Positions 6,953 through 64,000 of a stretch of 64,000 nucleotides of DNA are shown here, one piece after another. A program made the position numbers and the translations under genes. This DNA is from Octopus vulgaris. Taxonomy: Eukaryota. Positions within the stretch are counted from its first letter, which is position 1, and every line of letters begins with the position of its first letter. The notes under the pieces are model-generated. The model saw only the letters and a list, made by a program, of their open reading frames with translations. It was not told the origin of the DNA and made no database searches. The stretch is from positions 22,506,001 through 22,570,000 of the forward strand of contig OX597840.1 of NCBI GenBank assembly GCA_951406725.2. The letters run 5' to 3'.

Positions 6953-7204
6953 ACATCAACAACTACAGTCAATCGAAGATAACGACCAAACTGTCTACTC
7001 TTATCCACCAGTTCCAACAAGATTTAACAAAAAAGAAGACAAATTGCTTGACTAGATTTGATTGCAAAGCCAGTAACGTCTGTGGACTTCCCAAAATCTA
7101 CAAAATTTAGTCCATAAACGAAACCTGTAACAAGTTAACTTCTATAGTCATAAATATTCCACACCCGAGAGATCTTCGAATGAGGCCAATTATGGCCGAT
7201 CCAG
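6953..7204 (+). pseudogene. Penelope-like element reverse transcriptase fragment
   Basis: Translates as ...LTKKKTNCLTRFDCKASNVCGLPKIYKI*SINETC...PHPRDLRMRPIMADP. This matches the GLPKxHK...LRPI motif at the start of the Penelope RT domain and contains an in-frame stop. Confidence 0.7.
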
Positions 7205-7614
7205 GTATGTAGATACGGGGGGGGGGGGGGCATTGGGTGCTTAGCACTCCCAGTTAGAATAACATTATCGCCATCTGAGAAAAATATTAGCAATATCTGA
7301 AATCGCTAAATATGCAATAAATTGAACTTCTTTTCATTTAGTAGTTAGTGATCTGCAAATATGGGTAGTTTAGAGATGCTTAAAGTGTTTGTTGTAGCTG
7401 TAATTGTCGCACACACAAAAACGAATAAACACACACAGTCGCTCACACACACGTACACACAGAAATAAAAACACTCGCACACATACACACACACAAACAC
7501 TGAAATGAAAATACCCACACACACTTTCACACACTCACACACACATAAATAAAAACAGTCCCACGCACAAAAACACTGAAAAAAAACACTCACACGCACA
7601 CACACACTCACATA

Positions 7615-8266: not shown

Positions 8267-8304
8267 CTTGTGTATGTGTCACCTCTTCATTATTCTACAA
8301 AATA

Positions 8305-8528
8305 CCTTGTAGAGTTACATCCCTTGCATATTATAATTGAATAACATTACTAACATAATTATATGCTAGGGAAATAACTCTAGAATGCATATTGTAGTTA
8401 ACTATATAATTAAGATATAACTACAAATTATATTCTTCAGTTAGTTCCCTTGCATATTTATTATTGTTATTAAATTATATGCAAGGGAAGTAACTCTAGA
8501 TATATTTTGTCGTTATCTCCCCTAAATA
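8305..8528. repeat. Imperfect fold-back (inverted) repeats built on AGTTAYNTCCCTTG / CAAGGGAAGTAACT
   Basis: tagagttacatcccttgcata ... tatgctagggaaataactcta, and agttcccttgcatat ... atatgcaagggaagt. Paralogous blocks lie near 38.95, 41.28, 43.56, 48.59 and 50.45 kb. Confidence 0.6.
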
Positions 8529-8924
8529 TGTAGTTCTCTTACAGGGTAAATGTTTTTAAATTTTCTCCTGGTTTACTGAATTAACTTTTATTTGCGGTTG
8601 AAGCTTTGGCTGTTATTTCTAGTGGGTGAATGGCCTATTATGGCCGTTCCTTTATTGTTGATGTTGAACTTAAAAATGGTCTATGACTATTTTAATTTTT
8701 TCCTACTAGGCCGCTGGTGGCAAAAGAATTCTACAAAATGTTTTTTGCCACCCTATATTGATTAATTATGAATTTTCTGGTTAATTCCGTAATGGAATCG
8801 ACGGCTTATATTTATTTGCTGCCGATAAATTTGGCGCGAGTGCGACGATTTGAAAATTTTAGGTCAGATATTAACTTGGCAACGTCGGAAATGCCTCGTG
8901 AAAATATCTGTTCCGTCTTGGGCT

Positions 8925-9031
8925 ATTTCTTACTGATGAATCTGAGAGCCTGTGGAAGATTGGCTTGATTTAATTTAATCAGGTTAGTTTACCATTAATC
9001 AGCAGATGAAACGGTATATCGTATAAGAAAT
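8925..9031 (+). ncRNA. Type I hammerhead ribozyme, copy 1
   Basis: Stem I ATTTCTTA (8925-32) / TAAGAAAT (9024-31). CTGATGA at 8933-39. Stem II ATCTG (8940-44) / CAGAT (9003-07) with a long insert. GAAA at 9008-11. Stem III A-CGG-TATA-TCG-T. GUA cleavage triplet at 9021-23. Confidence 0.9.
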
Positions 9032-9416
9032 TACAGGGTAAATGTTTTAAAATTTTCTCCTGGTTTACTGAATTAACTTTTATTTGCGGTTGAAGCTTTG
9101 GCTGTTATTTCTAGTGGGTGAATGGCCTATTATGGCCGTTCCTTTATTGTTGATGTTGAACTTAAAAATGGTCTATGACTATTTTAATTTTTTCCTACTA
9201 GGCCGCTGGTGGCAAAAGAATTCTACAAAATTTTTTTTGCCACCCTATATTGATTAATTATGAATTTTCTGGTTAATTCCGTAATGGAATCGACGGCTTA
9301 TATTTATTTGCTGCCGATAAATTTGGCGCGAGTGCGACGATTTGAAAATTTTAGGTCAGATATTAACTTGGCAACGTCGGAAATGCCTCGTGAAAATATC
9401 TGTTCCGTCTTGGGCT

Positions 9417-9523
9417 ATTTCTTACTGATGAATCTGAGAGCCTGTGGAAGATTGGCTTGATTTAATTTAATCAGGTTAGTTTACCATTAATCAGCAGATG
9501 AAACGGTATATCGTATAAGAAAT
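9417..9523 (+). ncRNA. Type I hammerhead ribozyme, copy 2
   Basis: Same sequence as 8925-9031, offset by +492. Confidence 0.9.
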
Positions 9524-9908
9524 TACAGGGTAAATGTTTTAAAATTTTCTCCTGGTTTACTGAATTAACTTTTATTTGCGGTTGAAGCTTTGGCTGTTAT
9601 TTCTAGTGGGTGAATGGCCTATTATGGCCGTTCCTTTATTGTTGATGTTGAACTTAAAAATGGTCTATGACTATTTTAATTTTTTCCTACTAGGCCGCTG
9701 GTGGCAAAAGAATTCTACAAAATGTTTTTTGCCACCCTATATTGATTAATTATGAATTTTCTGGTTAATTCCGTAATGGAATCGACGGCTTATATTTATT
9801 TGCTGCCGATAAATTTGGCGCGAGTGCGACGATTTGAAAATTTTAGGTCAGATATTAACTTGGCAACGTCGGAAATGCCTCGTGAAAATATCTGTTCCGT
9901 CTTGGGCT

Positions 9909-10015
9909 ATTTCTTACTGATGAATCTGAGAGCCTGTGGAAGATTGGCTTGATTTAATTTAATCAGGTTAGTTTACCATTAATCAGCAGATGAAACGGTA
10001 TATCGTATAAGAAAT
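9909..10015 (+). ncRNA. Type I hammerhead ribozyme, copy 3
   Basis: Same sequence as 8925-9031, offset by +984. Confidence 0.9.
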
Positions 10016-10171
10016 TACAGGGTAAATGTTTTTAAATTTTCTCCTGGTTTACTGAATTAACTTTTATTTGCGGTTGAAGCTTTGGCTGTTATTTCTAGTG
10101 GGTGAATGGCCTATTATGGCCGTTCCTTTATTGTTGTAGTTCTCTTAATATATACTTTGTCGCTCTATTAC

Positions 10172-10457: not shown

Positions 10458-10961
10458 GGACTGCTTTCATTTATGTGCCTGCGTATTTGTATGTGTGGGT
10501 GTTTTCATTTGTGTGTGTGTGTGAGTGACTATGTGTTTTTATTTGTTTGTGTGTGTGCATGTATGTATTCATGTATATATTTATGTATATATGTATATAT
10601 GCATATATATATTTATATATATGCCCGACTTATAGGACTTATTCTTTGGAAGCCTAGCACTTATTCTAACTTTTTCTATTTTGCCGAACCGTTACGTTAC
10701 GTATGTGTGGACTGTGCTCAAACACGCACAAACACACATACGTCCGAACACACACACAGATACATGCAAAGATGCACACTTGTAGGTATTTATGCTTTAA
10801 ATATGTTGACCTTAAAAACCGTAACATTCTGAAGAAATTGTATGTGTGTGCAAGTCAGCCAATGTGAGTGGGTGTGCGTGTGTGCTTTCATTTCTGTGTC
10901 TGTGTGTGAGCGCGCATGTGTGACAGTGTTTCTAGTTCAATTTTTGTACGTGCGCGTGTAT

Positions 10962-11378
10962 ATGAGCCAATGAGGGGGACCTCTACATGGTAGCTAGACC
11001 TGGTAGAAATAGCAGCCAAATTTCCCCCAAATCACACCTTACTGTCTTATCTATGTATATATGTATGTATGAGCCTATGAGGGAGACCCCTCATGGCAGC
11101 TAGACCTGGTAGAAATAGCAGCCAAATTTCCCCCAAATCACACCTTACTGTCTTATCTATGTATATATGTATGTATGAGCCTATGAGAGAGACCCCTACA
11201 TGGCAGCTAGACCTGGTAGAAATAGCAGCCAAATTTCCCCCAAATCACACCTTACTGTCTTATCTATGTATATATATATGTATGTATGAGCCTATGAGGG
11301 AGACCCCTACATGGCAGCTAGACATGGTAGAAATAGCAGCCAAATCTCCCTCAAATCACACCTTACTGTCTTATCTTT
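10962..11378. repeat. Four tandem ~107-110-bp units derived from a short interspersed repeat
   Basis: gagcc(t/a)atgaggg...ctagacctggtagaaatagcagccaaatttcccccaaatcacaccttactgtcttatct at ~10962, 11070, 11177 and 11287. Confidence 0.9.
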
Positions 11379-47106: not shown

Positions 47107-48058
47107 ACAAACAAGCCTCGTTCACACATGCGTCTATACAAACAAGCCTCGTTCACCCGTCATGCGTCCATACAAACAATCCTTGTTCATCGTCATGCGT
47201 CCATACAAACAATCCTCGTTCACCCGTAATGCGTCCATACAAACAAGCCTCGTTCACACGTCATGCGTCTATACAAACGAGCCTCGTTCACACATGCGTC
47301 CATACAAACAAGCCTCGTTAACACATCATGCGTCCATACAAAAAGCCTCGTTCACCCGTCATGCGTCCATACAAACAAGCCTCGTTCACCCGTCATGCGT
47401 CCATACAAAGAAGCATCGTTCACTGTCATGCGTCCATACAAACAAGCCTCGTTCACCCGTCATGCGTCCATTCAAACAAGCCTCGTTCACACGTCATGCG
47501 TCCATACAAACAAGCCTCGTTTACACGTCATGCGTCCATACAAAAAGCCTCGTTCACCTCGTTCACACAAGCCTCGTCATGCGTCTATACAAACAAGCCT
47601 CGTTCACCCGTCATGCGTCTATACAAACAAGCCTCGTTCACCCGTCATGCGTCTATACAAACAAGCCTCGTTCACCCGTCATGCGTCTATACAAACAAGC
47701 CTCGTTCACCCGTCATGCGTCCATACAAACAATCCTCGTTCATCCGTCATGCGTCCATACAAACAATCCTCGTTCACCCGTAATGTGTCCATACAAACAA
47801 GCCTCGTTCACCCGTCATGCGTCTATACAAACAAGCCTCGTTCACACATCATGCGTCAATACAAACAAGCCTCGTTCACACATGCGTCCATACAAACAAG
47901 CCTCGTTCACACATCATTCGTCCATACAAATATGCCTAGTTCACATCATGCGTCCATACAAACAAGCCTCGTTCACACATCATTCGTCCATACAAACAAG
48001 CTTCGTTCACACATCATGCGTTTATACACACAAGCCTCGTTCACACATGCGTCCATAC
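47107..48058. repeat. 34-bp minisatellite (ACAAACAAGCCTCGTTCACCCGTCATGCGTCCAT), ~28 copies
   Basis: Directly visible tandem units. Confidence 0.95.
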
Positions 48059-48073
48059 ATAGATTTTCATACA

Positions 48074-49316: not shown

Positions 49317-49570
49317 TGATCGGCCATAATTGGCCTCATTCGGAGATCTCTCGGGTGTGGAATATTTATGACTATAGAAGTTAACTTGTTACAGGTTTTG
49401 TTTTTGGCTCAACTTTTGTAGATTTTGGGAAGTCCATAGATGTTACTGGCTTTGCAGTCAAATCTAGTCAAGCAATTTGTCTCCTTGTTTGTTAAACCGT
49501 GTTGGAACTGGTGGATAAGAGTAGACAGTTTGGTCATTATCTTCGATTGACTGTAGTTGTTGATGCTTTT
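49317..49570 (-). pseudogene. Penelope RT fragment, paralog of 6953-7204
   Basis: Reverse complement of 6953-7204 with the same boundaries and flanks. Confidence 0.7.
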
Positions 49571-49739: not shown

Positions 49740-51907
49740 CACATACAGATATACGTATATATACCCACACACGCATATATATATAATCTAAAACAAAAAT
49801 GAAACTTGATTATGTCCGAAGAGTAGTACTAGATAACATTATTACTTTATATATTTGTGGGGTGTAGTGAAATGTAAATGATCAGCTGGTCAATATTTAT
49901 TTGACGTGTGGGTGTTTGTGCGTGTGTGAGGACAGTCCACCCATACCCAAGATTGTTGCGTTGTCTTATGGGACCCAGCCGCGAAACTTCCGGACCCCAT
50001 TAATGAACTCATTTGCATATCAACAATTAGGGCTCACATTGAAGTTGTCCGGTTAACAAACAGTAGTGTCTGAATGGGAATTAGCTTGCTTACCTAACAA
50101 TTACTTCCGAGTTCAGTCCCACTGAGTGGCACGTTAGGCAAATGTCTTCTACTAGCATATAGGCTCGAGGCGATAATAACTGTCTCGAGTCTATATGATA
50201 TTACTTTTCCAAATCCACCACTTTCGCGTGGTTTTCTCAGCAGTAAATATAAACCAGATAGATATTTATATATATGTTTCTGTGTCCCCAAAACCGCTTG
50301 ACAACCGATGCTGGTCTTTTTACACTCCAGTAACTTCGGGAAAAGACGACCAATAAATAATATTCTAGGCTGTCATAGAGTAAGTCCTAGTGTCGATTTG
50401 CTCTAGAAAAGCGTTAAAGGGTGTGTGTCACGTCTGAATTATATATTCTAGAGCTATTTCTCTCGCATATTATAATTTAATAAAAGTAAAATAATTATAT
50501 GTAAGGAAAGTAACTCTGGAAGATGTTATCTAGTTATCTCCCTTCCGAGAGTTAATATCCTAAAATATTTTATTGTTAAAATATAATATTCAAGGGAAGT
50601 AACTGTAGAAGATACTCTGTAGTTATCTCCCTTAAGTATGTAGTTATCGTAATATACGCTTTGTCGCTCTTATACTCTTTCAGTTATTTCACTGTGACCA
50701 TGGTGGAGCACCGCCTTTAGTCAAGCAAATCAACCCCAGCAATTATTCTTTGTATGCCTATTACTTCACGTATAGGTCTCTTTTGCAGAACCGATAAGTT
50801 ACGGGGACGTAATGTTCGATGTACTGATTTAGTAGGTATTTATTTATTGTAAGAACTTCAATTATTATAAATTATGTGCTAGGAAAAATACTAGAAACTT
50901 TTTTGACAGACCTATTGGGGCTCCTTGTGTGTGTGGGACTGTTTTTATTTATGTGAGTATGGGTATTTTCATTTCAGTGGTTGTTTGTGTGTGTGTGAGA
51001 GTGTTTTTATTTCTGTGTGCGCGAGTGTGTGAGCGACTGAGTGTTTCTATTTGTTTGTGTGTGTGCGACACTTACAAATGCAACAAGCACTTTGACCATT
51101 TCTAAGATACCCACATTTGAGATCACTAACTACTAAATCAAAATAAGTTCAATTTATTGCACCTTTAGTGACTTCAGATGTTGCTCATATTTTCCCCATG
51201 TGTCGACAATGTATTAATTTCACAAGTGGATAAAAGAAATTCTCATACTGGCGTGGAGGGGGCTGATATTCTAACTGCGAGTTCAATGCACCCAATGCCC
51301 CTTTACATTCTGAATAACTTGTATGTTTGTGCTAGTTAGGGTTAGGGTTTATGTGTGAGTGTGTAACTGTGTTTTCATTTCTGTGTGTGGGTGCTTATGT
51401 TTGTGTGTATGTGTGTTTGTGCGTATGTTAGTGTGTTAGAGTTTGGATGTGTTACCGTATTTTCCATTTGTATTTGTGTGTGTCTGTGTTTGTGCATGTG
51501 TAGGTATGTAACTGTTTTCATTTCTGTGTTTGTCCGCGTGTTTGAGTGTGTGAATATGTATCTGTATTTTTATTTTTTGTGCGTATGTGAGTGTTTTTGT
51601 GAGAATTTTTTTTTCAGTGTTTGTGTGCGTGGGACTTTTTATATGTGTGTGTGTGTTGCTATCTTCATTTCAGTGTCTGTGTTTGTGTGAATGTTTTTAT
51701 TTTTGTGTGTACGTGTGTGTGAGCGACTGTGTTTTTATTCGTTTGTTTGTGCGACGATTACAGCTACAGCAGACACCTTAAGCATCTCCAAGATACCCAC
51801 ATTTGCAGATCCCTAAGTTCTAAATGAAAAGAAGTTCAATTTATTGCACCTTTAGCGACTTCAGATTTGCGAGTGTTAAGCAGCCAATGCCTCCCGTATC
51901 TACATAC

Positions 51908-52152
51908 ATGGATTGGCCATAATTGGCCTCATTCGGATATCTCTCGGGTGTGGAATATTTATAACTATAGAAGTTAACTTGTTACAGGTTTTGTTTATGG
52001 CTTAACTTTTGTAGATTTTGGGAAGTTCATAGATGTTACTGGCTTTGCAGTGAAATCTAGTCAAGCAATTTGTCTCCTTTTTTGTTAAATGGTGTTGGAA
52101 CTGGTGGATAAAAGTAGACAGTTTGGTCATTACCTTCGAACGACTGTAGCTG
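51908..52152 (-). pseudogene. Penelope RT fragment, second paralog of 6953-7204
   Basis: Collinear with 49317-49570. Confidence 0.7.
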
Positions 52153-52869
52153 TTTTACTCCCTGTATTTTAGCGGTTCGGCAAAAGAGAATAAAATACTA
52201 GGCTTACAAAGAAGTGCTGCGGACGATGTGATCAACTAAAGGCGGCGCTCCAGTATTATATATATATATATATATATACTTACAGATATACGTGTATATA
52301 CCCACATACGCATATATACTATATAAAACAAAAAAGAAACTTGATTATGTCATTATTACTTTCTTACAGATATTACAACATGAAACGTATTATATGACGT
52401 TAGGGAAGTAACTCTAGGAGATATTTTCTGCTATCTCCCTAGTTAACAGGTCATGGACTTTTCTCGTTATTTAACTCTTTTACTCTCATTTACTTGTTTC
52501 AGTCATTTCACTGTGGCCATGTTGGAGCACGACCTTTAGTCGATCATATCGACCCCAGGACTTATTCATTGTAGGCCTAGTGCTTATTCTATCAGTCTAT
52601 TTCGCTGAACCTCTAAGTTATGGGGACGTAAACAGACTAGCATCCGTTGTGTAGCAATGTTTGGGAACAAAGACACACGCACACATAAACATATATATGA
52701 CTGGAGTTTTCCAGTTTCCTTCCACCAAATCCAATCACAAGGCTTTGGTCGGCTCGGGGCTATAGTAGATTTTTCAAACAATGCTGGTGTGTTTTCCTCC
52801 CTGTATTTCAGCGGCTCGGCAGAAAAGAATAAGTTAGAATAAATACTAGGCTTAGAAAGAATAAGTGCT

Positions 52870-53302
52870 GCCTCGTTCACCCATCATGCGTCCATACAAA
52901 CATGCCTCGTTCACACATCATGCGTCCATACAAACATGCCTCGTTCACACATCATGCGTCCATACAAACAAGCCTCTTTCACACATGCGTCCATACAAAC
53001 AAGCCACGTTCACACATCATGCGCCCACTCATACACACCTCGTTCACACATCATGCGTCCATTCAAACAAGCCTCGTTCACACATCATGCGTCCAAACAA
53101 CCAAGCCTCGTTCACACATCATGCGTTCATACAAACAAGCCTCGTTCACACATCATGCGTCCATACAAATATGCCTCGTTCACATATCTTGCGTCCATAC
53201 AAACAAGCCTCGTTCACACATCATGCGTCCATACAAACAAGCCTCGTTCACACATCATGCGTCCATACACACAAGCCTCGTCCACACATCATGCGTCCAT
53301 AC
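52870..53302. repeat. 34-bp minisatellite, second array (~13 copies)
   Basis: acaaacaagcctcgttcacacatcatgcgtccat units. Confidence 0.95.
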
Positions 53303-53317
53303 ATAGATATTCATACA

Positions 53318-56300
53318 TTCAGGGACATGTAATTCAGGGACAGGTAATTCAGGGGCAGGTAATTCAAGGCAGGTAATCCAGGCGCAGGAAATTCAGGGGC
53401 AGGTAATCCAGGTGCATGTATTTCAGGGACAGGTAATTCAGGGGCATGTAATTAAGGGGCAGGAAATTCAGGGACATGTAATTCAGGGCCATGTAATTCA
53501 CGGGCAGGTAATTGAGGGGCATGTAATTCAGGGGTATGTAATTCAGGGTCAGGTTATTCAGGTGTAGGTTATTCAGGGGCAGGTAATCCAGGGTTAAGTA
53601 ATTAAGGGGCATGTAATTCAGGGGCATGTAATTCAGAGCAAGGTAATTCAGAGGCAGTTAATTGAGGGGCATGTAATTCAGGGGCAGGTAATTCAGGTTT
53701 ATGTAATCCAGGTGCAGGTAATTCAGGGGAATGTAATTCAGGTGCATGTAATTCAGGGGCATGTAATTGAGGTGCAGGTAATTGAGGGGCATATAATTCA
53801 GGTGTATGTAATTCAGGGGAATGTAATTCAGGGGAATGTAATTTAGGGGAAGGTAATTCAGGGGTAATTCAGGGACAGGTAATTTAAAGGAATGTCATTC
53901 ATGGGCAGGTAATTCAGGGTTAGGTAATCCAGGGTATGTAATTCAGGGGCAATTAATTCAGATGAAAGGTAATTCAGGGGCAGGTAATCTAGGTGCAGGT
54001 AATTTAGGGATAGATAATTCAGAGGCATGTCATTCAGGTGCATGTAATTAAGAGGCATGTAATTGAGGGCCATGTAATTCAGGTGTTTGCAATTCAGGGG
54101 CAGGTAATTCAGATGCCTGTAATTTAGGGGCAGGTACTTCAGGGGTATGTAATTCAGGGGCAGGTAATTCAGGTGTATGTTATTCAGGGGCATGTAATTA
54201 AAGGGCGGGCAGGTAATTGAGGGGCATGTCATTCAGGGGCATGTAATTTAGGGGCAGGTAATTCACGGGCATGTAATTCAGGTGTATGTGATTCATTGGC
54301 AGGTAATTCATTGGCATGTAATTTAGGGGCAGGTAATTCACGAGCATGTAATTCAGGTGTATGTAATTCAGGGGCAGGTAATTCAGGTGCAGGTTATTCA
54401 GGGACTCAGGGGCATGTAATTGAGGGGAAGGTAATCCAGGTGCAGGTGATTTAGAGGAATGTCATTCATTGGCAGGTAATTCAGGGGCAGGTAATTCAGA
54501 GGAATGTAATTCAGGGGCATGTAATTCAGGGGCATGTAATTCAGATGAAAGGTAATTCAGGGGCAGGTAATTTATAGGAATGTCATTCATGGGCAGGTAA
54601 TTCAGGGTTAGGTAATTCAGGGGCAGGTAATTTAGGGGCATGTCATTCACGGGCAGGTAATTTAGGGATAGATAATTCAGAGGCAGGTCATTCAGGTGCA
54701 TGTAATTAAGAGGCATGTAATTGAGGGGCAGGTAATTCAGGTGTTTGTAATTCAGGGGCAGGTAATTCAGGGGAAGGTAATTCAGGGTCAGGTTATTTAG
54801 GGTTAGGTTATTCAGGGGCAGGTAATTCAGATGTATGTTATTCAGGGGAAGGTAATTCAGGGGCAGGTAATTCAGGGGCATGTAATTAAGGGGCAGGTAG
54901 TTCAGGGGCATGTAATTCATGGGCAGGTAATTGAGGGGCATGTAATTCAGGGGCATGTAATTGAGGTGCAGGTATTTGAGGGGCATGTAATTCAGGTGTA
55001 TGTAATTCAGGGGCATGTAATTCATGGGTGGGTAATTCAGAGGAATGTAATTCAGGGAAGGTAATTTAGAGGATTGTCATTCAGGGGCAGGTAATTCTGG
55101 GTAAGGAAATCCAGGGGCATGTAATTCAGGGGTAATTCAGGGACAGGTAATTTAGAGGAATGTCATTCATGGGCAGGTTATTCAGGGGCAGGTAATTCAG
55201 GGGCAGGTAATTCAGGGGCAGGTAATTCAGATGTATGTTATTCAGGGGAAGGTAATTCAGGGGCAGGTAATCCAGGGGATGTAATTAAGGGGCAGGTAGT
55301 TCAGGGGCATGTAATTCATGGGCAGGTAATTTAGGGGCATGTAATTCAGGGGCATGTAATTGAGGTGCAGGTAATTGAGGGGCATGTAATTCAGGTGTAT
55401 GTAATTCAGGGGCATGTAATTCATGGGTGGGTAATTCAGAGGAATGTAATTCAGGGAAGGTAATTTAGAGGATTGTCATTCAGGGGCAGGTAATTCTGGG
55501 TTAGGAAATCCAGGGGCATGTAATTCAGGGGCATGTAATTCAGGGGCAGGTAATTCAGGGGATGGTAATTTAGGGATAGGTAATTCAGGGCCATGTCATT
55601 CAGGGGAAGGTAATTGAGGGTCAGGTTATTCAGGTGTAGGTTATTCAGGGGCAGGTAATCCAGGGTTAAGTAATTAAGGGGTATGTAATTCAGAGCAAGG
55701 TAATTCAGTGGCAGGTAATTGAGGGGCATGTAATTCAGGTGCAGTTAATTCAGGTTTATGTAATCCAGGTGCAGGTAATTCAGGGGAATGTAATTCAGGT
55801 GCATGTAATTAAGGGGCATGTAATTCAGGTGTATGTAATTGAGGTGCATGTAATTCAGGGGTAGGTAATTAAGGGGCACGTAATTCAGGGGCATGTAATT
55901 CATGGGTGGGTAATTCAGAGGAATGTAATTCAGGGGCATGTAATTCAGGGGTAATTCAGGGAAGGTAATTTAGAGGATTGTCATTCAGGGGCAGGTAATT
56001 CAGGGTTAGGTAATCCAGGGGAAGGTAATTCAGGGACAGGTAATTTAGAGGAATGTCATTCATAGGCAGGTAATTCAGGGGCAGGTAATTCAGGGGTATG
56101 TAATTCAGTGGATTGTAATTCAGAGAAAATGTTATTCAGGGGCAGGTAATCTAGGTGCAGGTAATTCAAGGGCAGGTCGTTCAGGTGCTTGTAATTAAGA
56201 GGCATCTAATTGAGGGCCATGTAATTCAGATGTTTGCAATTCAGCGGCAGGTAATTCAGATGCATGTAATTTAGGGGCAAGTACTTCAGGGGTATGTAAT

Positions 56301-59300
56301 TCAGGGGCAGGTAATTCAGATGTATGTAATTCAGGGGTAATTCAGGGGCAGGTAATTCAGGGGCATGTAATTAAGGGGAAGGTAGTTCAGGGGCATGTAA
56401 TTCATGGGCAGGTAATTGAAGGGCATGTAATTTAGGGGCAGGTAATTCACGGGCATGTAATTCAGGTGTATGTAATTCTTGGGCAGGTAATTGAGGGGCA
56501 GATAGTTCAGGGGCAGGTAATTCAGGTGTATGTAATTCAGGTGCATGTAATTCATGGGCAGGTAATTCAGGGGTATGTAATTCAGGGACATGTCATTCAG
56601 GGAAGGTAATTCAGGGGCATGTAATTCAGGGGCATGTAATTCATGGGCGGGTAATTGAGGGGAAGGTAATCCAGGTGCAGGTGATTTAGAGTAATGTCAT
56701 TCATTGGCAGGTAATTCAGGGGCAGGTATTCAGAGGAATGTAATTCAGTGGCATGTAATTCAGGGGAAGGTAATTAAGGGACAGGTAATTTATAGGAATG
56801 TTATTCATGGGCAGGTAATTCAGGGGCAGGTAATTCAGGGGTATGTAATTCAGGGGCATGTAATTCAGATGAAAGGTAATTCAGGGGCATGTCAATCACG
56901 GGCAGGTAATTTAGGGATAGATAATTCAGAGGCAGGTAATTCAGGTGTTTGCAATTCAGGGGCGGGTAATTCAGATGCATGTTATTTAGGGGCAGGTAAT
57001 TCAGGGGCAGGTACTTCAGGGGTATGTAATTCAGGGCAGGTAATTCAGGGGTATGTAATTCAGGGCAGGTAATTCAGGGGAAGGTAATTCAGATGTATGT
57101 TATTCAGGGGAAGGTAATTCAGGGGCAGGTAATCCAGGGGCATGTAATTCAGGGGCAGGTAATCCAGGGGCATGTAGTTCAGGGGCAGGTAGTTCAGGGG
57201 CATGTAATTCATGGGCAGGTAATTGAGGGGCATGTCATTCAGGGGAATGTAATTTAGGGGCAGGTAATTCACGGGCAGGTAATTCACGGGCATGTAATTC
57301 AGGGGTATGTAATTTATGGGCAGCTAATTCAGGGGTATGTAATTCAGGGGAATGTCATTCAGGGGCAGGTAATTCGGGCATGTAATTCATGTGCGGGTAA
57401 TTGAGGGGAAGGTAATCCAGGTGCAGGTGATTTAGAGTAATGTCATTCATTGGCAGGTAATTCAGGGGCTTGTAATACAGAGCAATGTAATTCAGGGGAA
57501 GGTAATCCAGGGGGGGAGGTAATTTATAGGAATGTCATTCATGAGCAGGTAATTCAGGGTCTTGTAATTCAGGGGCATGTAATTGAGGTGCAGGTAATTG
57601 AGGGGCTTGTAATCCAGGTGTATGTAATTCAGGGGCATGTAATTCGTGGGTGGGTAATTCAGAGGAATGTAATTCGGGGGAAGGTAATCCAGGGGCAGGT
57701 AATTCAGGGACAGGTAATTTAGAAGAATGTCAATTCATGGGCAGGTAATCCAGGGGCATGTAATTCAGGGGCAGGTAATCGAGGTGCATGTAATTTAGGG
57801 GCATGTAATTCACGGGCAGGTAATTCAGGGGCTGGTGATTTAGGGATAGATAATTCAGAGGCATGTCATTCAGGGGCAGGTCATTCAGGTGCATGTAATT
57901 AAGAGACAGGTAATTCAGGGCCATGTAATTCAGGTGCTTGTAATTTAGGGGCAGGTACTTCAGGGGAAGGTAATTTAGGGGCATTTAATTCATGGGCAGG
58001 TAATTGAGGGGCATGTCATTCAGGGGCATGTAATTCACGGGCAGGTAATTCACGGGCATGTAATTCAAGTGTATATAATTCAGGGGCAGGTAATTCAGGT
58101 GCAGGTTATTCAGGGACTCAGGGGTAGATACTTCAGGGGCATGTAATTCTGGGGCAGGTAATTCAGGGGCATGTTATTCAGGGGCATGTCATTCAGGGAA
58201 GGTAATTCAGGGGCAGGTAATTCAGGGTTAGGTAATTCAGCGGCATGTAATTGAGGTGCAGGTAATTCAGGTGTCTGTAATTCAGGGGTAGGTAATTCAG
58301 GGGCATGTAATTCAGGGGCATGTAATTCGTGGGTGGGTAATTCAGAGGAATGTAATTCAGGGGAAGGTAATCCAGGGGCAGGTAATTCAGGGGTAATTCA
58401 GGGACAGGTAACTTAGAGGAATGTCATTCATCTGCAGGTAATTTAGGGGCAGGTAATCCAGGGGCATGTAATTCAGATGAAAGGTAATTCAGGGCATGTC
58501 ATTCACGGGCAGGTAATTCAGGGGCTGGTAATTTAGGGATAGATAATTCAGAGGCATGTCATTCAGGGGCAGGTCATTCAGGGTCATGTAATTTAGGGGC
58601 AGGTAATTCATGGCCATTTAATTCATGGGCAGGTAATTGGGGGGGCAGGTAATATATGGGCAGGTAATTGAGGGGCATGTCATTCAGGGGCAGGTAATTT
58701 AGGGGCAGGTAATTCAGGTGTATGTAATTCAGGGGCAGGTTATTCAGGGACTCAGGGGTAGATAATTCAGGGGCATGTAATTCAGGTGTATGTAATTCAG
58801 GGGCATGTAAATCAGTTGCATGTAATTGAGGGGCATGTAATTGAGGGGCATGTAATTCAGGTGTATGTTATTCAGGGGCAGGTTATTCAGGTATAGGTTA
58901 TTCAGGGGCAGGTAATCCAGGGGTAACTAATTAAGGGGCAGGTCATTCAGGGGCATGAAATTTAGGGGCTGGTAATTCACGGGCAGGTAATTCACGGGCA
59001 TGTAATTTATGGGAAGGTAATTCAGGGGTATGTAATTCAGGGGCAGGTAAATCGGGCATGTAATTCATGTGCGGGTAATTGAGGGGAAGGTAATCCAGGT
59101 GCAGGTGATTTAGAGTAATGTCATTCATTGGCAGGTAATTCAGGGGCAGGTAATACAGAGCAATGTAATTTAGGGGAAGGTAATCCAGGGGGAGGTAATT
59201 TATAGGAATGTCATTCATGGGCAGGTAATTCAGGGTCTTGTAATTCAGGGGCATGTAATTGAGGGGCTCGTAATCCAGGTGTATGTAATTCAGGGGCATG

Positions 59301-62300
59301 TAATTCGTGGGTGGGTAATTCAGAGGAATGTAATTCGGGGGAAGGTAATTCAGGCGTAATTCAGGGACAGGTAATTTAGAGGAATGTCATTCATGGGCAG
59401 GTAATCCAGGGGCATGTAATTCAGGGGCAGGTAATCGAGGTGCATGTAATTCAGGGGCATGTCATTCACGGGCATGTAATTCAGGGGCTGGTAATTTAGG
59501 GATAGATAATTCAGAGGCATGAAATTCAGGGGCAGGTCATTCAGGTGCATGTAATTAAGAGGCAGGTAATTCAGGTGCTTGTAATTCAGGGGCACGTAAT
59601 TCAGATGCATGTAATTTAGGGGCAGGTACTTCAGGGGAAGGTAATTTAGGGGCATTTAATTCATGGGCAGGTAATTGAGGGGCATGTAATTTAGGGCCAG
59701 GTAGTTCACGGGCAGGTAATTGAGGGGCATATCATTCAGGGGCAGGTAATTCACGGGCATGTAATTTAGGGGCAGGTAATTCACGGGCATGTAATTTAGG
59801 GGCAGGTAATTCACGGGCAGGTAATTCACGGGCATGTAAATTCAGGGTATGTAATTCAGGGGCAGGTAATTCACGTGCAGGTTATTCAGGGACTCAGGGG
59901 TAGATACTTGAGGGGCATGTAATTCTGGGGCAGGTAATTCAGGGGCATGTAATTCAGGGGCATTTAATTCAGGTGCATGTAATTCATGGGCAGGTAATTC
60001 AGGGGCATGTAATTCAGGGGCATGTCATTCAGGGGCATGTCATTCAGGGAAGGTAATTCAGGGGCAGGTAATTCAGGGTTAGGTAATTCAGCGGCATGTA
60101 ATTCAGGTGTCTGTAATTCAGGGGCATGTAATTCGTGGGTGGGTAATTCAGAGGAATGTAATTCAGGAGCATGTAATTCAGGGGAAGGTAATCCAGGGGC
60201 AGGTAATTCAGGGGTAATTCTGGGACAGGTAACTTAGAGGAATGTCATTCACCTGCAGGTAATTTAGGGGCAGGTAATCCAGGGGCATGTAATTCAGAGG
60301 AAAGGTAATTCAGGGGCATGTCATTCACGGGCAGGTAATTCAGGGGCTGGTAATTTAGGGATAGATAATTCAGAGGCATGTCATTCAGGGGCAGGTCATT
60401 CAGGGTCATGTAATTTAGGGGCAGGTACTTCAGGGGCAGGTAATTCATGGGCAGGTAATTGAGGGGCAGGTAATTCAGGTGTATGTAATTCAGGTGCAGG
60501 TTATTCAGGGACTCAGGGGTAGATAATTCAGGGGAGTGTAATTCAGGTGTATGTAATTCAGGGGTATGTAATTCAGGTGCATGTAATTCATGGGCAGGTA
60601 ATTCAGGGGCAGGTAATTCAGGGGCATGTCATTCAGGGGCATGTCATTCAGGGGCATGTCATTCAGGGAAGGTAATTCAGGGCTAGGTAATTCAGGGGCA
60701 TGTAATTCAGGTGTATGTAATTCAGGGGCATGTCATTCACGGGTGGGTATTTTAGGGATAGGTAATTCAGGGGCACATCATTCAGAGTCAGATCATTCAT
60801 GTGCATGTAATTAAGAGTCATGTAATTTAGGGGCAGGTAATTCAGGGGAAGGTAATTCAGGGGTAATTCAGGGACAGGTAATTTAGAGGAATGTCATTCA
60901 TGGGCAGGTAATTCAGGGGCTTGTAATTCTGGGTTAGGTAATCCAGGGGCATGTAATTCAGGAGCATGTAATTCAGGGGCAGGTAATCTAGGTGCCGGTA
61001 ATTCAGGGGTATGTCAATCACGGGCAGGTAATTTAGGGATAGATAATTCAGGGGCAGGTCATTTAGGTGCATGTAATTGAGGGGCAAGGTAATTGAAGGC
61101 CATGTAATTCAGGGGCAGGTAAATCAGGGGCATGTAATTCTGGGGAAGGTAATTCAGGTGTATGTTATTCAGGGGCAGTTAATCCAGGGGTATGTCATTC
61201 ACTGGCAGGTAATTCAGGGGCAGGTAATTTAGGGATAGATAATTCAGGGGCATATCATTCAGGGTCAGATCATTCATGTGCATGTAATTAAGAGGCATGT
61301 AATTGAGGGGCAGGTAATTCAGGTGTTTGTAATTCAGGGGCAGGTAATTCAGATGCATGTAATTTAGAGGCAGGTAATTCAGGGGTATGTAATTCAGGGG
61401 CAGGTAATTTAGAGGTATGTCATTCATTGGCAGATAATTCAGGGACATGTAATTAAGGGGCAGGTAGTTCAGGGGCATGTAATTCATGGGCAGGTAATTG
61501 AGGGGCATGTCATTCAGGGGCATGTATTTTAGGGGCAGGTAATTCACGGGCAGGTAATTCACGGGCATGTAATTCAGGTGTATGTAATTCATGGGTAGGT
61601 AATTGAGGGGCATGTAATTTAGGGGCAGGTAATTCACGGGCATGTAATTCAGGGACTCAGGGGCTGATAATTCAGGTGTATGTAATTCAGGGGCATTTAA
61701 TTCAGGTGCACTTCATTCAGGGGCAGGTAATTCAGGGGCATGTAATTCGGGCATGTAATTCATGTGCGGGTAATTGAGGGGAAGGTAATCCAGGGGCAGG
61801 TAATTCAGGAGCAGGTGATTTAGAGGAATGTCATTCATTGGCAGGTAATTCAGGGGCAGGTAATTCAGAGGAAGGTAATTCAGGGGTAATTTAAGGACAG
61901 GTAATTTATAGGAATGTCATTCATGGGCAGGTAATTCAGGAGCTTGTAATTCAGGGTTAGGTAATCCAGGGGCAGGTAATTCAGGGGCATGTAATTCAGA
62001 TGAAATGTAATTCAGGGGCAGGTAATGTAGGTGCAGGTATTTCAGGGGTATGTCATTCACGGGCAGGTAATTCAGGGGCAGCTAATTTAGGGATAGATAA
62101 TTCAGAGACATGTCATTCAAGGGCAGGTCATTCAGGTGCATGTAATTAAGAGACATGTAATTGAGGGGCAGGTAATTCAGGGCATGTAATTCAGGTGTTT
62201 GTAATTCAGGGGCAGGTCATTCAGATGCATGTAATTTAGTGGCAGGTAATTCAGGGGCAGGTACTTCAGGGTTAAGTAATTAAGGGGCATGTCATTCAGG

Positions 62301-64000
62301 TTTATGTAATTCAGGTGCAGGTAATTCAGGGGCATGTAATTCAGGGGCATGGAAATGAGGTGCAGGTAATTGAGGGGCATGTAATTCAGATGTGTGTAAT
62401 TCAGGGGAAGGTAATTCAGGGGCATGTAATTCAAGGGCATGTAATTCGTTGGTGGGTAATTCAGAGCAATGTATTTCAGGGGCATGTAATTCAGGTGCAT
62501 GTAATTCAGGGGCATGTAATTGAGGTGCAGGTAATTGAGGGGCATGTAATTCAGGTGTATGTAATTCAGGGGTAGGTAATTCAGGGGCATGTAATTCGTT
62601 GGTGGGTAATTCAGAGCAATATATTTCAGGGGAAGGTAATTTAGGGGTAATTCAGGGACAGGTAATTTAGAGGAATGTCATTCATGGGCAGGTAATTTAG
62701 GGGCAGGTAATCGAGGGGCATGTAATTCAGGGGCATGTAATTCAGATGAAAGGTGATTCAGGGGCATGTAATTCAGATGAAAGGTGATTCAGGGGCAGGT
62801 AATCTAGGTGCAGGTAATTCAGAGGCATGTCATTCACGGGTAGGTAATTCAGGGGCCGGTAATTTAGGGATAGATAATTCAGAGGCATGTCATTCAGGGC
62901 AGGTCATTCAGGTGCATGTAAATAAGAGGCAGGTAATTCAGGGCCATGTATTTCAGGTGTTTGTAATTCAGGGGCAGGTAATTCAGATGCATGTAATTTA
63001 GGGGCAGGTACTTCAGGGGTATATAATTCAGGGGCAGGTAATTGAGGGGAAGTTAATTCAGGTGTATGTTATTCAGGGGCAGGTAATTCATGGCCAGGTA
63101 ATTGAGGGGCATGTAATTTAGGGGCAGTAATTCACGGGCAAGTAATTCACGGGCATGTAATTCAGGTGTATGTAATTCATGGGCAGGTAATTGAGGGGCA
63201 TGTCATTCAGGGGCACGTAATTCAGGCGCATGTAATTTTGGGGCAGGTAATTCACGGGCATGTAATTCAGGTGTATGTAATTCAGGGGCAGGTAATTCAG
63301 GTGCAGGTTATTCAGGGACTCAGGGGTAGATAATTCAGGGGCATGTAATTCAGGGTCAGGTAATTCAGGGACAGGTAATTCAGGGGCATGTAATTCATGG
63401 GCAGGTTATTCAGGGGCATGTAATTTAGGGGCAGGTAATTTAGAGGAATATTGGCAGATAATTCAAGGACATGTAATTAAGGGGCAGGTAGTTCAGGGGC
63501 ATGTAATTCATGGGCAGGTAATTTAGGGGCATGTAATTCATGGGAAGGTAATTGAGGCGAAGGTAATCCAGGGGCAGGTAGTTCAGGTGCAGGTGATTTA
63601 GAGGAATGTCATTCATTGGCAGGTAATTCAGGGGCAGGTAATTTAGAGTGTAATTCAGGGGAAGGTAATCCAGGGGCAGGTAATTCAGGGGTAATTCACG
63701 GAAAGGTAATTTATAGGGATGTTATTCATGGGCAGGTGATTGAGGGGCAGGTAGTTCAGGGGCAGGTAATTCAGAGGAGTGTAATTCAGGGGAAGGTAAT
63801 TCAGGGGTAATTCAGGGACAGGTAATTTATAGGAATGTCATTCATGGGCAGGTGATTGAGGGGCATGTCATTCAGGGACAGGTAATTCAGGGGCCCATAA
63901 TTTAGGGGCAGGTAATTCAAAGGCATGTAATTCAGGTGTATGTAATTCAGGGGCAGGTAATTCAGATGCAGGTTATTCAGGGACATGTGACTCAGGGGCA
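53318..64000. repeat. 15-bp satellite GTAATTCAGGGGCA(T/G), >10.6 kb, continuing past the window end
   Basis: Uninterrupted divergent 15-mer array with occasional 10- and 14-bp units. Confidence 0.97.

Follow-up and report, generated by a model that had tools for sequence, protein, structure and literature searches.

The 64,000-nt stretch of Octopus vulgaris DNA analyzed here, called the window throughout, holds a non-LTR retrozyme, a known kind of element. Its family is best explained, at a probability of about three in four, as a non-coding retrozyme mobilized in trans by a Penelope-like element (PLE) through double rolling-circle copying of one ring. Hundreds of young insertions supply base-level start sites, a rule for their pairing and evidence for a single template, and intact PLE frames lie in the same genome. 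These data bear on questions posed in the available text of PMC7229834, PMC8557442, PMC11167929 and 10.64898/2026.07.22.740005, namely how retrozymes return to DNA and how the tandem and inverted insertions of PLEs originate.

The insertion in the window and its hammerheads

The array, whose features are collected in Table 1, has a period of 492 nt over 3.2 copies with 99% matches. When numbering of the unit begins immediately 3' of the predicted ribozyme cut (9024 = position 1), its four copies mismatch at positions 26 and 209 only, in agreement with the first-pass annotation, which had described 3.25 copies of a 492-nt unit with few differences. The 3' end of the array lies at site 131. The two 13-mers that flank the array are identical, and the last 3 nt of the left copy and the first 2 nt of the right copy fall within the element. 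They form a real target-site duplication, as had been proposed, because the uninserted state is seen in L166, a paralog of the host repeat, where the left flank runs through a single 13-nt site directly into the right flank (38 of 40 bases identical). The window copy is atypical of its family in having a single arm, an end at site 131 and a target that is not a microsatellite, and it is this last property that makes its duplication visible. The host repeat at 8270-8541 has internal palindromic structure, and several copies of it are found close to contig ends.

Table 1. Features of the retrozyme insertion, in window coordinates
Feature	Position	Strand	Remarks
Host repeat (target)	8270..8528	.	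resumes after 10147; other copies without insertion
Target-site duplication, left copy	8529..8541	+	last 3 nt also unit positions 8-10; empty site in L166
Retrozyme insertion, one arm	8539..10136	+	starts at unit position 8, crosses three ribozyme junctions, ends at position 129
Type I hammerhead 1	8925..9031	+	predicted cut after 9023; long hairpin in loop II
Predicted monomer / RNA ring	9024..9515	+	492 nt, 35% GC, folding z = -5.2
16-nt motif common to families A, B and C	9098..9113	+	about 40 nt before start site 1
Hairpin 1 (9120-9141) and putative RT start site 1	9120..9154	+	unit position 131 = 9154
107-nt "tail" between start sites	9155..9261	+	contains hairpin 2 (9208-9244)
Putative RT start site 2	9261	+	unit position 238
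Hammerhead 2	9417..9523	+	predicted cut after 9515
Second full monomer	9516..10007	+	
Hammerhead 3	9909..10015	+	predicted cut after 10007
Target-site duplication, right copy	10135..10147	+	first 2 nt also unit positions 128-129; L166

The unit is non-coding: it has no ATG-started frame longer than 66 codons, a longest stop-free stretch of 68 codons and no reverse transcriptase (RT) or GIY-YIG open reading frame. It folds far more stably than shuffled sequences. Its type I hammerheads, low GC content, pure tandem structure without LTRs and target-site duplication longer than 4 bp where visible are those of non-LTR retrozymes, and the earlier identification is strengthened by a family of dispersed, non-coding, tandem type I hammerhead units. 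A plant LTR retrozyme, with its type III hammerhead in LTRs and 4-bp duplication, was considered and rejected on account of the type I topology and 13-bp duplication seen here. The impression that a 492-nt unit is longer than usual does not hold against the range of 51-972 bp reported in the available text of 10.64898/2026.07.22.740005.

The elements of the hammerhead lie where the first-pass annotation had placed them at each full junction. In hammerhead 1, stem I pairs 8925-8932 with 9024-9031, the core occupies 8933-8939, stem II pairs 8940-8944 with 9003-9007, and GAAA (9008-9011) is followed by a self-complementary stem and loop III (9012-9022) and the cut triplet at 9021-9023; the same elements recur at +492 and +984. 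An Rfam scan returned only Hammerhead_3 (type III) matches, three times and below threshold (27.2 bits against a gathering score of 48.5), and the type I assignment therefore rests on sequence and covariation rather than on the Rfam score. Sample 2, which spans older subfamilies, is made up of 20 insertions, those with the first 20 ends listed on C1 at unit position 238; they are 85-99% identical to the unit in the window. Counted with one vote per insertion, changes at the invariant core positions number 0 of 159, against 4.37% elsewhere. N7 varies over all four bases in this sample, and H17 is A or C. A double change in stem II exchanges G-C and A-U, and another at the center of loop III exchanges A-U and G-C while keeping its self-complementarity; drawn from 13 distinct related sequences and two pairs, this covariation carries modest weight. 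The conserved core with compensatory stem changes that had been predicted for other copies is thus present in the family alignments. Selection on the ribozyme is observed, and the family would almost certainly be one of functional, self-cleaving ribozymes.

The best predicted fold of a lone ribozyme is not the hammerhead, lying 3.4 kcal/mol lower (-29.9 versus -26.5 kcal/mol), while two stem III segments together are predicted to pair at -11.4 kcal/mol. Because stem III is short and self-complementary, the units would probably be cut as double hammerheads. Both the fold preference and the stem III pairing are consistent with the double hammerhead described in PMC4209133, which, in the available text, cuts multimers and spares monomer rings. 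A palindromic loop III is also found in sister families B and C, described below.

Each unit further carries what we take to be an E2F-like site (9322-9329 in the window), a possible internal promoter; similar CG-rich motifs occur in the 3' regions of two PLE copies (L104, L110). None of the listed sequencing runs containing the unit is recorded as RNA; a 523-nt contig, from one of four runs guessed to be RNA, spans the unit plus about 30 nt, as either a ring or tandem DNA would. Elsewhere in the window lie 34-bp minisatellites (47107-48059 and 52870-53303) and a 15-bp G-rich satellite of about 720 copies that runs off the window (53317-64000).

Insertion ends, targets and sister families

A genome search with the monomer gave 245 matches on many contigs (39 scored of 1124 candidates), nearly all of them, among the matches listed, 97-100% identical to it; the dispersed copies with other targets that the first pass had anticipated do exist. 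Exact-pattern counts found at least 681 ends at unit position 238 adjoining (TA)n and 181 ends of the youngest type at position 131 adjoining (TA)n, with reversed-pattern controls at 0 for both. The site-131 ends are fewer because subfamilies vary in sequence at that site. At least 681 insertions are known, nearly all in (TA)n. Duplications measure 13 bp in the window and about 11-15 bp in L031, and are masked inside (TA)n elsewhere.

In most insertions the layout is head-to-head, with two outward-pointing arms that meet at scattered 5' truncation points. The outer ends of the arms fall at two fixed positions of the unit, 131 and 238. These ends coincide with two internal sites and not with the ribozyme cut. 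Two samples establish how they are combined. Sample 1 comprises 38 insertions, biased toward long young copies (L039 was dropped as a duplicate of L038). In it, 28 of 38 have one arm ending at 131 and the other at 238, in 2 a 131 arm is accompanied by only 16-18 nt left of a 238 arm, 2 pair a 238 end with an off-site end, and 6 have no second family A arm. In sample 2, the partner end falls at 127-136 in 15 of 20 insertions, is a 7-nt remnant in one and is missing in four single-armed copies. Across the 58 insertions both ends lie at the 131 and 238 sites in 45, and all 45 are mixed; no homotypic pair (131/131 or 238/238) was found in the two samples.

A hairpin precedes each of these sites, and both hairpins are kept in family B, with a G-C/A-T exchange in hairpin 2. 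Unit position 131 also recurs at 8662 and 9646. Positions 131 and 238 are read as RT start sites bounding a 107-nt tail because of the hallmarks of PLEs and the behavior of an anole PLE, both discussed below. The 16-nt motif upstream of start site 1 is a candidate protein-binding element. Its exact matches number 24,251 in the genome, compared with 2 for a control; the larger figure includes other repeats and is not a count of retrozymes. One such repeat lies in the window itself (10961-11376, minus strand), where 106-bp tandem units carry the motif about 40 nt before a TA-rich stretch and no hammerhead was noticed.

The sister families share this organization. Family B (L045:3119-3594, L069-L088; 2423 candidates) has a 467-nt unit about 68-73% identical to that of family A, hammerhead stems that differ from those of A, and the same two end sites. 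Its uncurated match list contains two apparent 238/238 pairs (L069/L077, L075) against about seven mixed ones, so the pairing of start sites is not absolute. Family C (L051:5427-6003, L160-L164, L168; 2702 candidates) has a 575-nt unit, its own hammerhead and two ends about 100 nt apart. Both families were considered as the ORF-bearing partner and rejected, being tandem retrozymes themselves. In L051, an arm of family A breaks off at the cut site next to a family C copy; this may reflect either a chimeric insertion or integration into a copy that was already there.

Several insertions depart from the simple layout. Short fillers from unit positions ~55-87 occur at the arm junction in two (L047:5090-5122, L048:5312-5342) and internal discontinuities in two others (L034, L065), suggesting template switches. 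L038 and L039, 63 kb apart on C11, have identical flanks and a long arm that differs in unit number, reflecting either a segmental duplication with a change in the array or an assembly effect.

The template of each insertion

The arrays in sample 1 carry 46 substitutions fixed in all covering units of an insertion (three homopolymer stretches excluded). Thirteen of these are private to one insertion, in 10 insertions, and a fixed minority variant is present on both arms in 17. Private variants common to both arms indicate that all units were made at once from one sequence. Divergence tells the same story, at 0.29% within an arm, 0.30% between arms and 0.67% between insertions, and at 0.53, 0.64 and 6.24%, respectively, in seven older insertions. 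A single template molecule per insertion is strongly supported by these variants; the earlier proposal of copying from circular or multimeric RNA is also supported. The shared source would most simply be a monomer ring, and a circular template is likely; we moderately favor two starts on one RNA molecule. Near period-3 variant patterns in L056, L064 and at unit position 26 of the window copy hint at trimer rings, each requiring an extra unit or resting on one site.

Three other accounts of these arrays can be weighed against the ring. The arrays might have begun as short PLE-type insertions that were later expanded and homogenized locally by unequal exchange or conversion, as in the satellite model set out in the available text of 10.64898/2026.07.22.740005. 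The equal flanks and unequal unit numbers of L038 and L039 fit this account, as do a few variants common to adjacent units (L064, L065). The variant spectrum is, however, star-like, with 67 singletons and 7 shared-but-unfixed variants at positions covered by at least four units, whereas gradual mixing would give about 60 of the latter. Opposite arms are as similar as units inside one arm, and the family consists of hundreds of short dispersed arrays with fixed ends. Local expansion is thus highly improbable. Hardly more credible is a pseudo-rolling circle, in which RT jumps from end to end on a cleaved linear monomer without ligation. It would likewise yield single-template arrays and would place 5' ends at the cut site, and the fillers and discontinuities show that RT can switch template. 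Such jumping usually adds or loses bases, as established for the R2 RT, yet 161 of 168 unit junctions are exact over 24 nt, six have one substitution and one is altered.

The most serious competitor, although still an unlikely one, is a PLE-mobilized linear template, an uncut or partly cut multimer from a homogeneous source array, with any rings as by-products. The 5' ends of arms or segments fall at unit positions 1-16 in 10 of 73 cases (P ~1e-4), including that of the window copy, which starts at position 8. This excess implies that some templates were linear at the cut, that rings were re-opened or that RT stalled at stem I, and it lends the linear multimer some probability. The anole PLE, moreover, inserts in vitro without a ribozyme (PMC11167929, available text). 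Against the linear multimer, an extra step would be needed to fix the 13 private variants in all units, and arrays should shrink with each round, yet arms reach nine units. Only 1 of the 67 singletons was found again in another insertion, at a different unit index, a comparison that covers 58 of at least 681 insertions, so that sources may lie among the rest.

Proposed mechanism, candidate partner and known systems

The double rolling-circle reading of family A can be set out as a series of steps. The array would be transcribed and its hammerheads would cut the transcript into units, probably as double hammerheads, which would close into rings by analogy with the retrozymes of coral, mussel and axolotl. 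A PLE RT/GIY-YIG protein, probably a dimer, would bind one ring at the hairpin-flanked sites 131 and 238 and nick the two strands of an AT-rich target, mostly (TA)n, with a spacing of about 11-15 bp in the readable cases. One DNA strand would prime at site 131 and the other at 238; the targets, the ends and the pairing of the ends are observed, and the enzyme is presumed. Both RTs would then travel round the one ring, completing at most about nine turns, and the two cDNAs, joined 5' to 5', would form a palindrome of head-to-head arms in which only one side carries the 107-nt tail. The window copy would be a one-armed product primed at site 131. A read-through (AU)n tail was considered as the priming device and weakly rejected, in that the window copy and L031, which lie outside (TA)n, gained no TA run.

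Judged from insertion anatomy, PLE machinery very probably mobilizes the family. The fuller reading is about evenly balanced. It holds that the genome preserves, in this family, the products of double rolling-circle target-primed reverse transcription, with the ring held by a PLE dimer at sites 107 nt apart, and that B, C and probably more families form a large superfamily with a common protein-recognition module, served by an autonomous element that has no detectable sequence in common with them.

A young PLE family with intact 781-aa frames encoding RT and GIY-YIG (L119:3745-6090, L120-L137), which we take to be Neptune-type from its domain layout, is present in the same genome. It inserts in (TA)n and has two ends 40 nt apart, which are mixed in L124, the one two-arm copy read. 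Its median pairwise divergence of 0.65% (14 frames) is like that of the youngest retrozymes, both samples being biased to top matches, and it carries what looks like a degenerate U3-A8 variant of the hammerhead core. No sequence in common with the retrozyme unit was detected in it, and we propose it as the partner only tentatively. Several older, related PLE families also end in (TA)n, and the window contains short PLE RT-region fragments (6964-7206, 49322-49555 and 51906-52166) that are 41-51% identical to the young family. Searches of 50 GIY-YIG-anchored loci, drawn from the best 150 of 6136 candidates, with the unit (blastn) and with an A+B profile found inserted retrozyme pieces only and no pLTR homologous to the unit; the Naiad and Poseidon families fall outside this survey. 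A tblastn search of the retrozyme loci with two PLE proteins gave no PLE match joined to any family A arm, and three widely spaced motif pairs were rejected as pLTR-ORF-pLTR units. Naiads target (TA)n and have been reported from Octopus (PMC8557442, available text).

Non-LTR retrozymes, their circular RNAs and a proposed PLE-driven rolling-circle reverse transcription are covered in the available text of PMC7229834 and likewise of PMC7761336. The retrozymes of coral, mussel and axolotl (PMC7229834) resemble the octopus family in their non-coding tandem units, type I hammerheads, GC below 45%, target-site duplications longer than 4 bp, highly self-paired predicted RNA and co-occurring PLEs. Fixed internal ends, insertions of two inverted arms, targeting to (TA)n and analysis of variants within arrays are all absent from the available text, as are cephalopods. 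Circles have been demonstrated for those retrozymes, whereas the octopus family is known here from DNA. The vertebrate retrozymes of 10.64898/2026.07.22.740005 are tied to PLE pLTRs, with molluscs unmentioned in the available text; they share with the octopus family a dependence on PLEs and a unit size within 51-972 bp. The case made there is built on co-occurrence and homology to pLTRs and favors local amplification, whereas the insertion anatomy of the octopus family argues against it. A literature search found neither a retrozyme from a cephalopod nor an account of retrozymes with paired fixed ends or single-template arrays, although the supplements of PMC7229834 and of the bioRxiv papers may include the former, and supplements or repeat databases the latter. 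The insertion anatomy and its mechanistic reading thus appear to be undescribed. If the double rolling-circle reading is true, it would account both for the spread of animal retrozymes and for the inverted arm and one-ended tail of PLEs, and the copying of a ring RNA over several turns into both strands of a nicked target would be a new reaction for an RT.

The closest likeness is to PLEs themselves. In the available text of PMC8557442, EN+ PLEs are marked by an arm that is inverted and 5'-truncated, by a one-ended tail and by insertion into (TA)n; the octopus family has two fixed internal ends, a tail on one side, an inverted 5'-truncated arm and microsatellite targeting. Chlamys PLEs such as MRC1 (PMC8557442) are likewise non-autonomous and multicopy and form head-to-tail PLE-type insertions. 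They differ, in that text, in resembling autonomous families at their 3' end, and most Chlamys elements lack hammerheads. According to the available text of PMC11167929, the anole Poseidon PLE PAc, a predicted dimer, nicks and extends both strands of AT-rich DNA and initiates synthesis at two internal positions of the RNA, one at either border of the tail; its ribozyme mutants insert normally, with unprocessed RNA as the main substrate. PAc and the EN+ PLEs thus share with the octopus family two internal starts bounding a tail downstream of the hammerhead cut, nicking and extension of both strands, an inverted 5'-truncated arm, a one-ended tail and AT-rich or (TA)n targets. The octopus family differs from them in having no ORF, a tail of 107 nt rather than 30-40 nt, and multi-turn arms. 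Its start sites are strictly paired in the insertions sampled, whereas those of PAc are the same on both strands in vitro.
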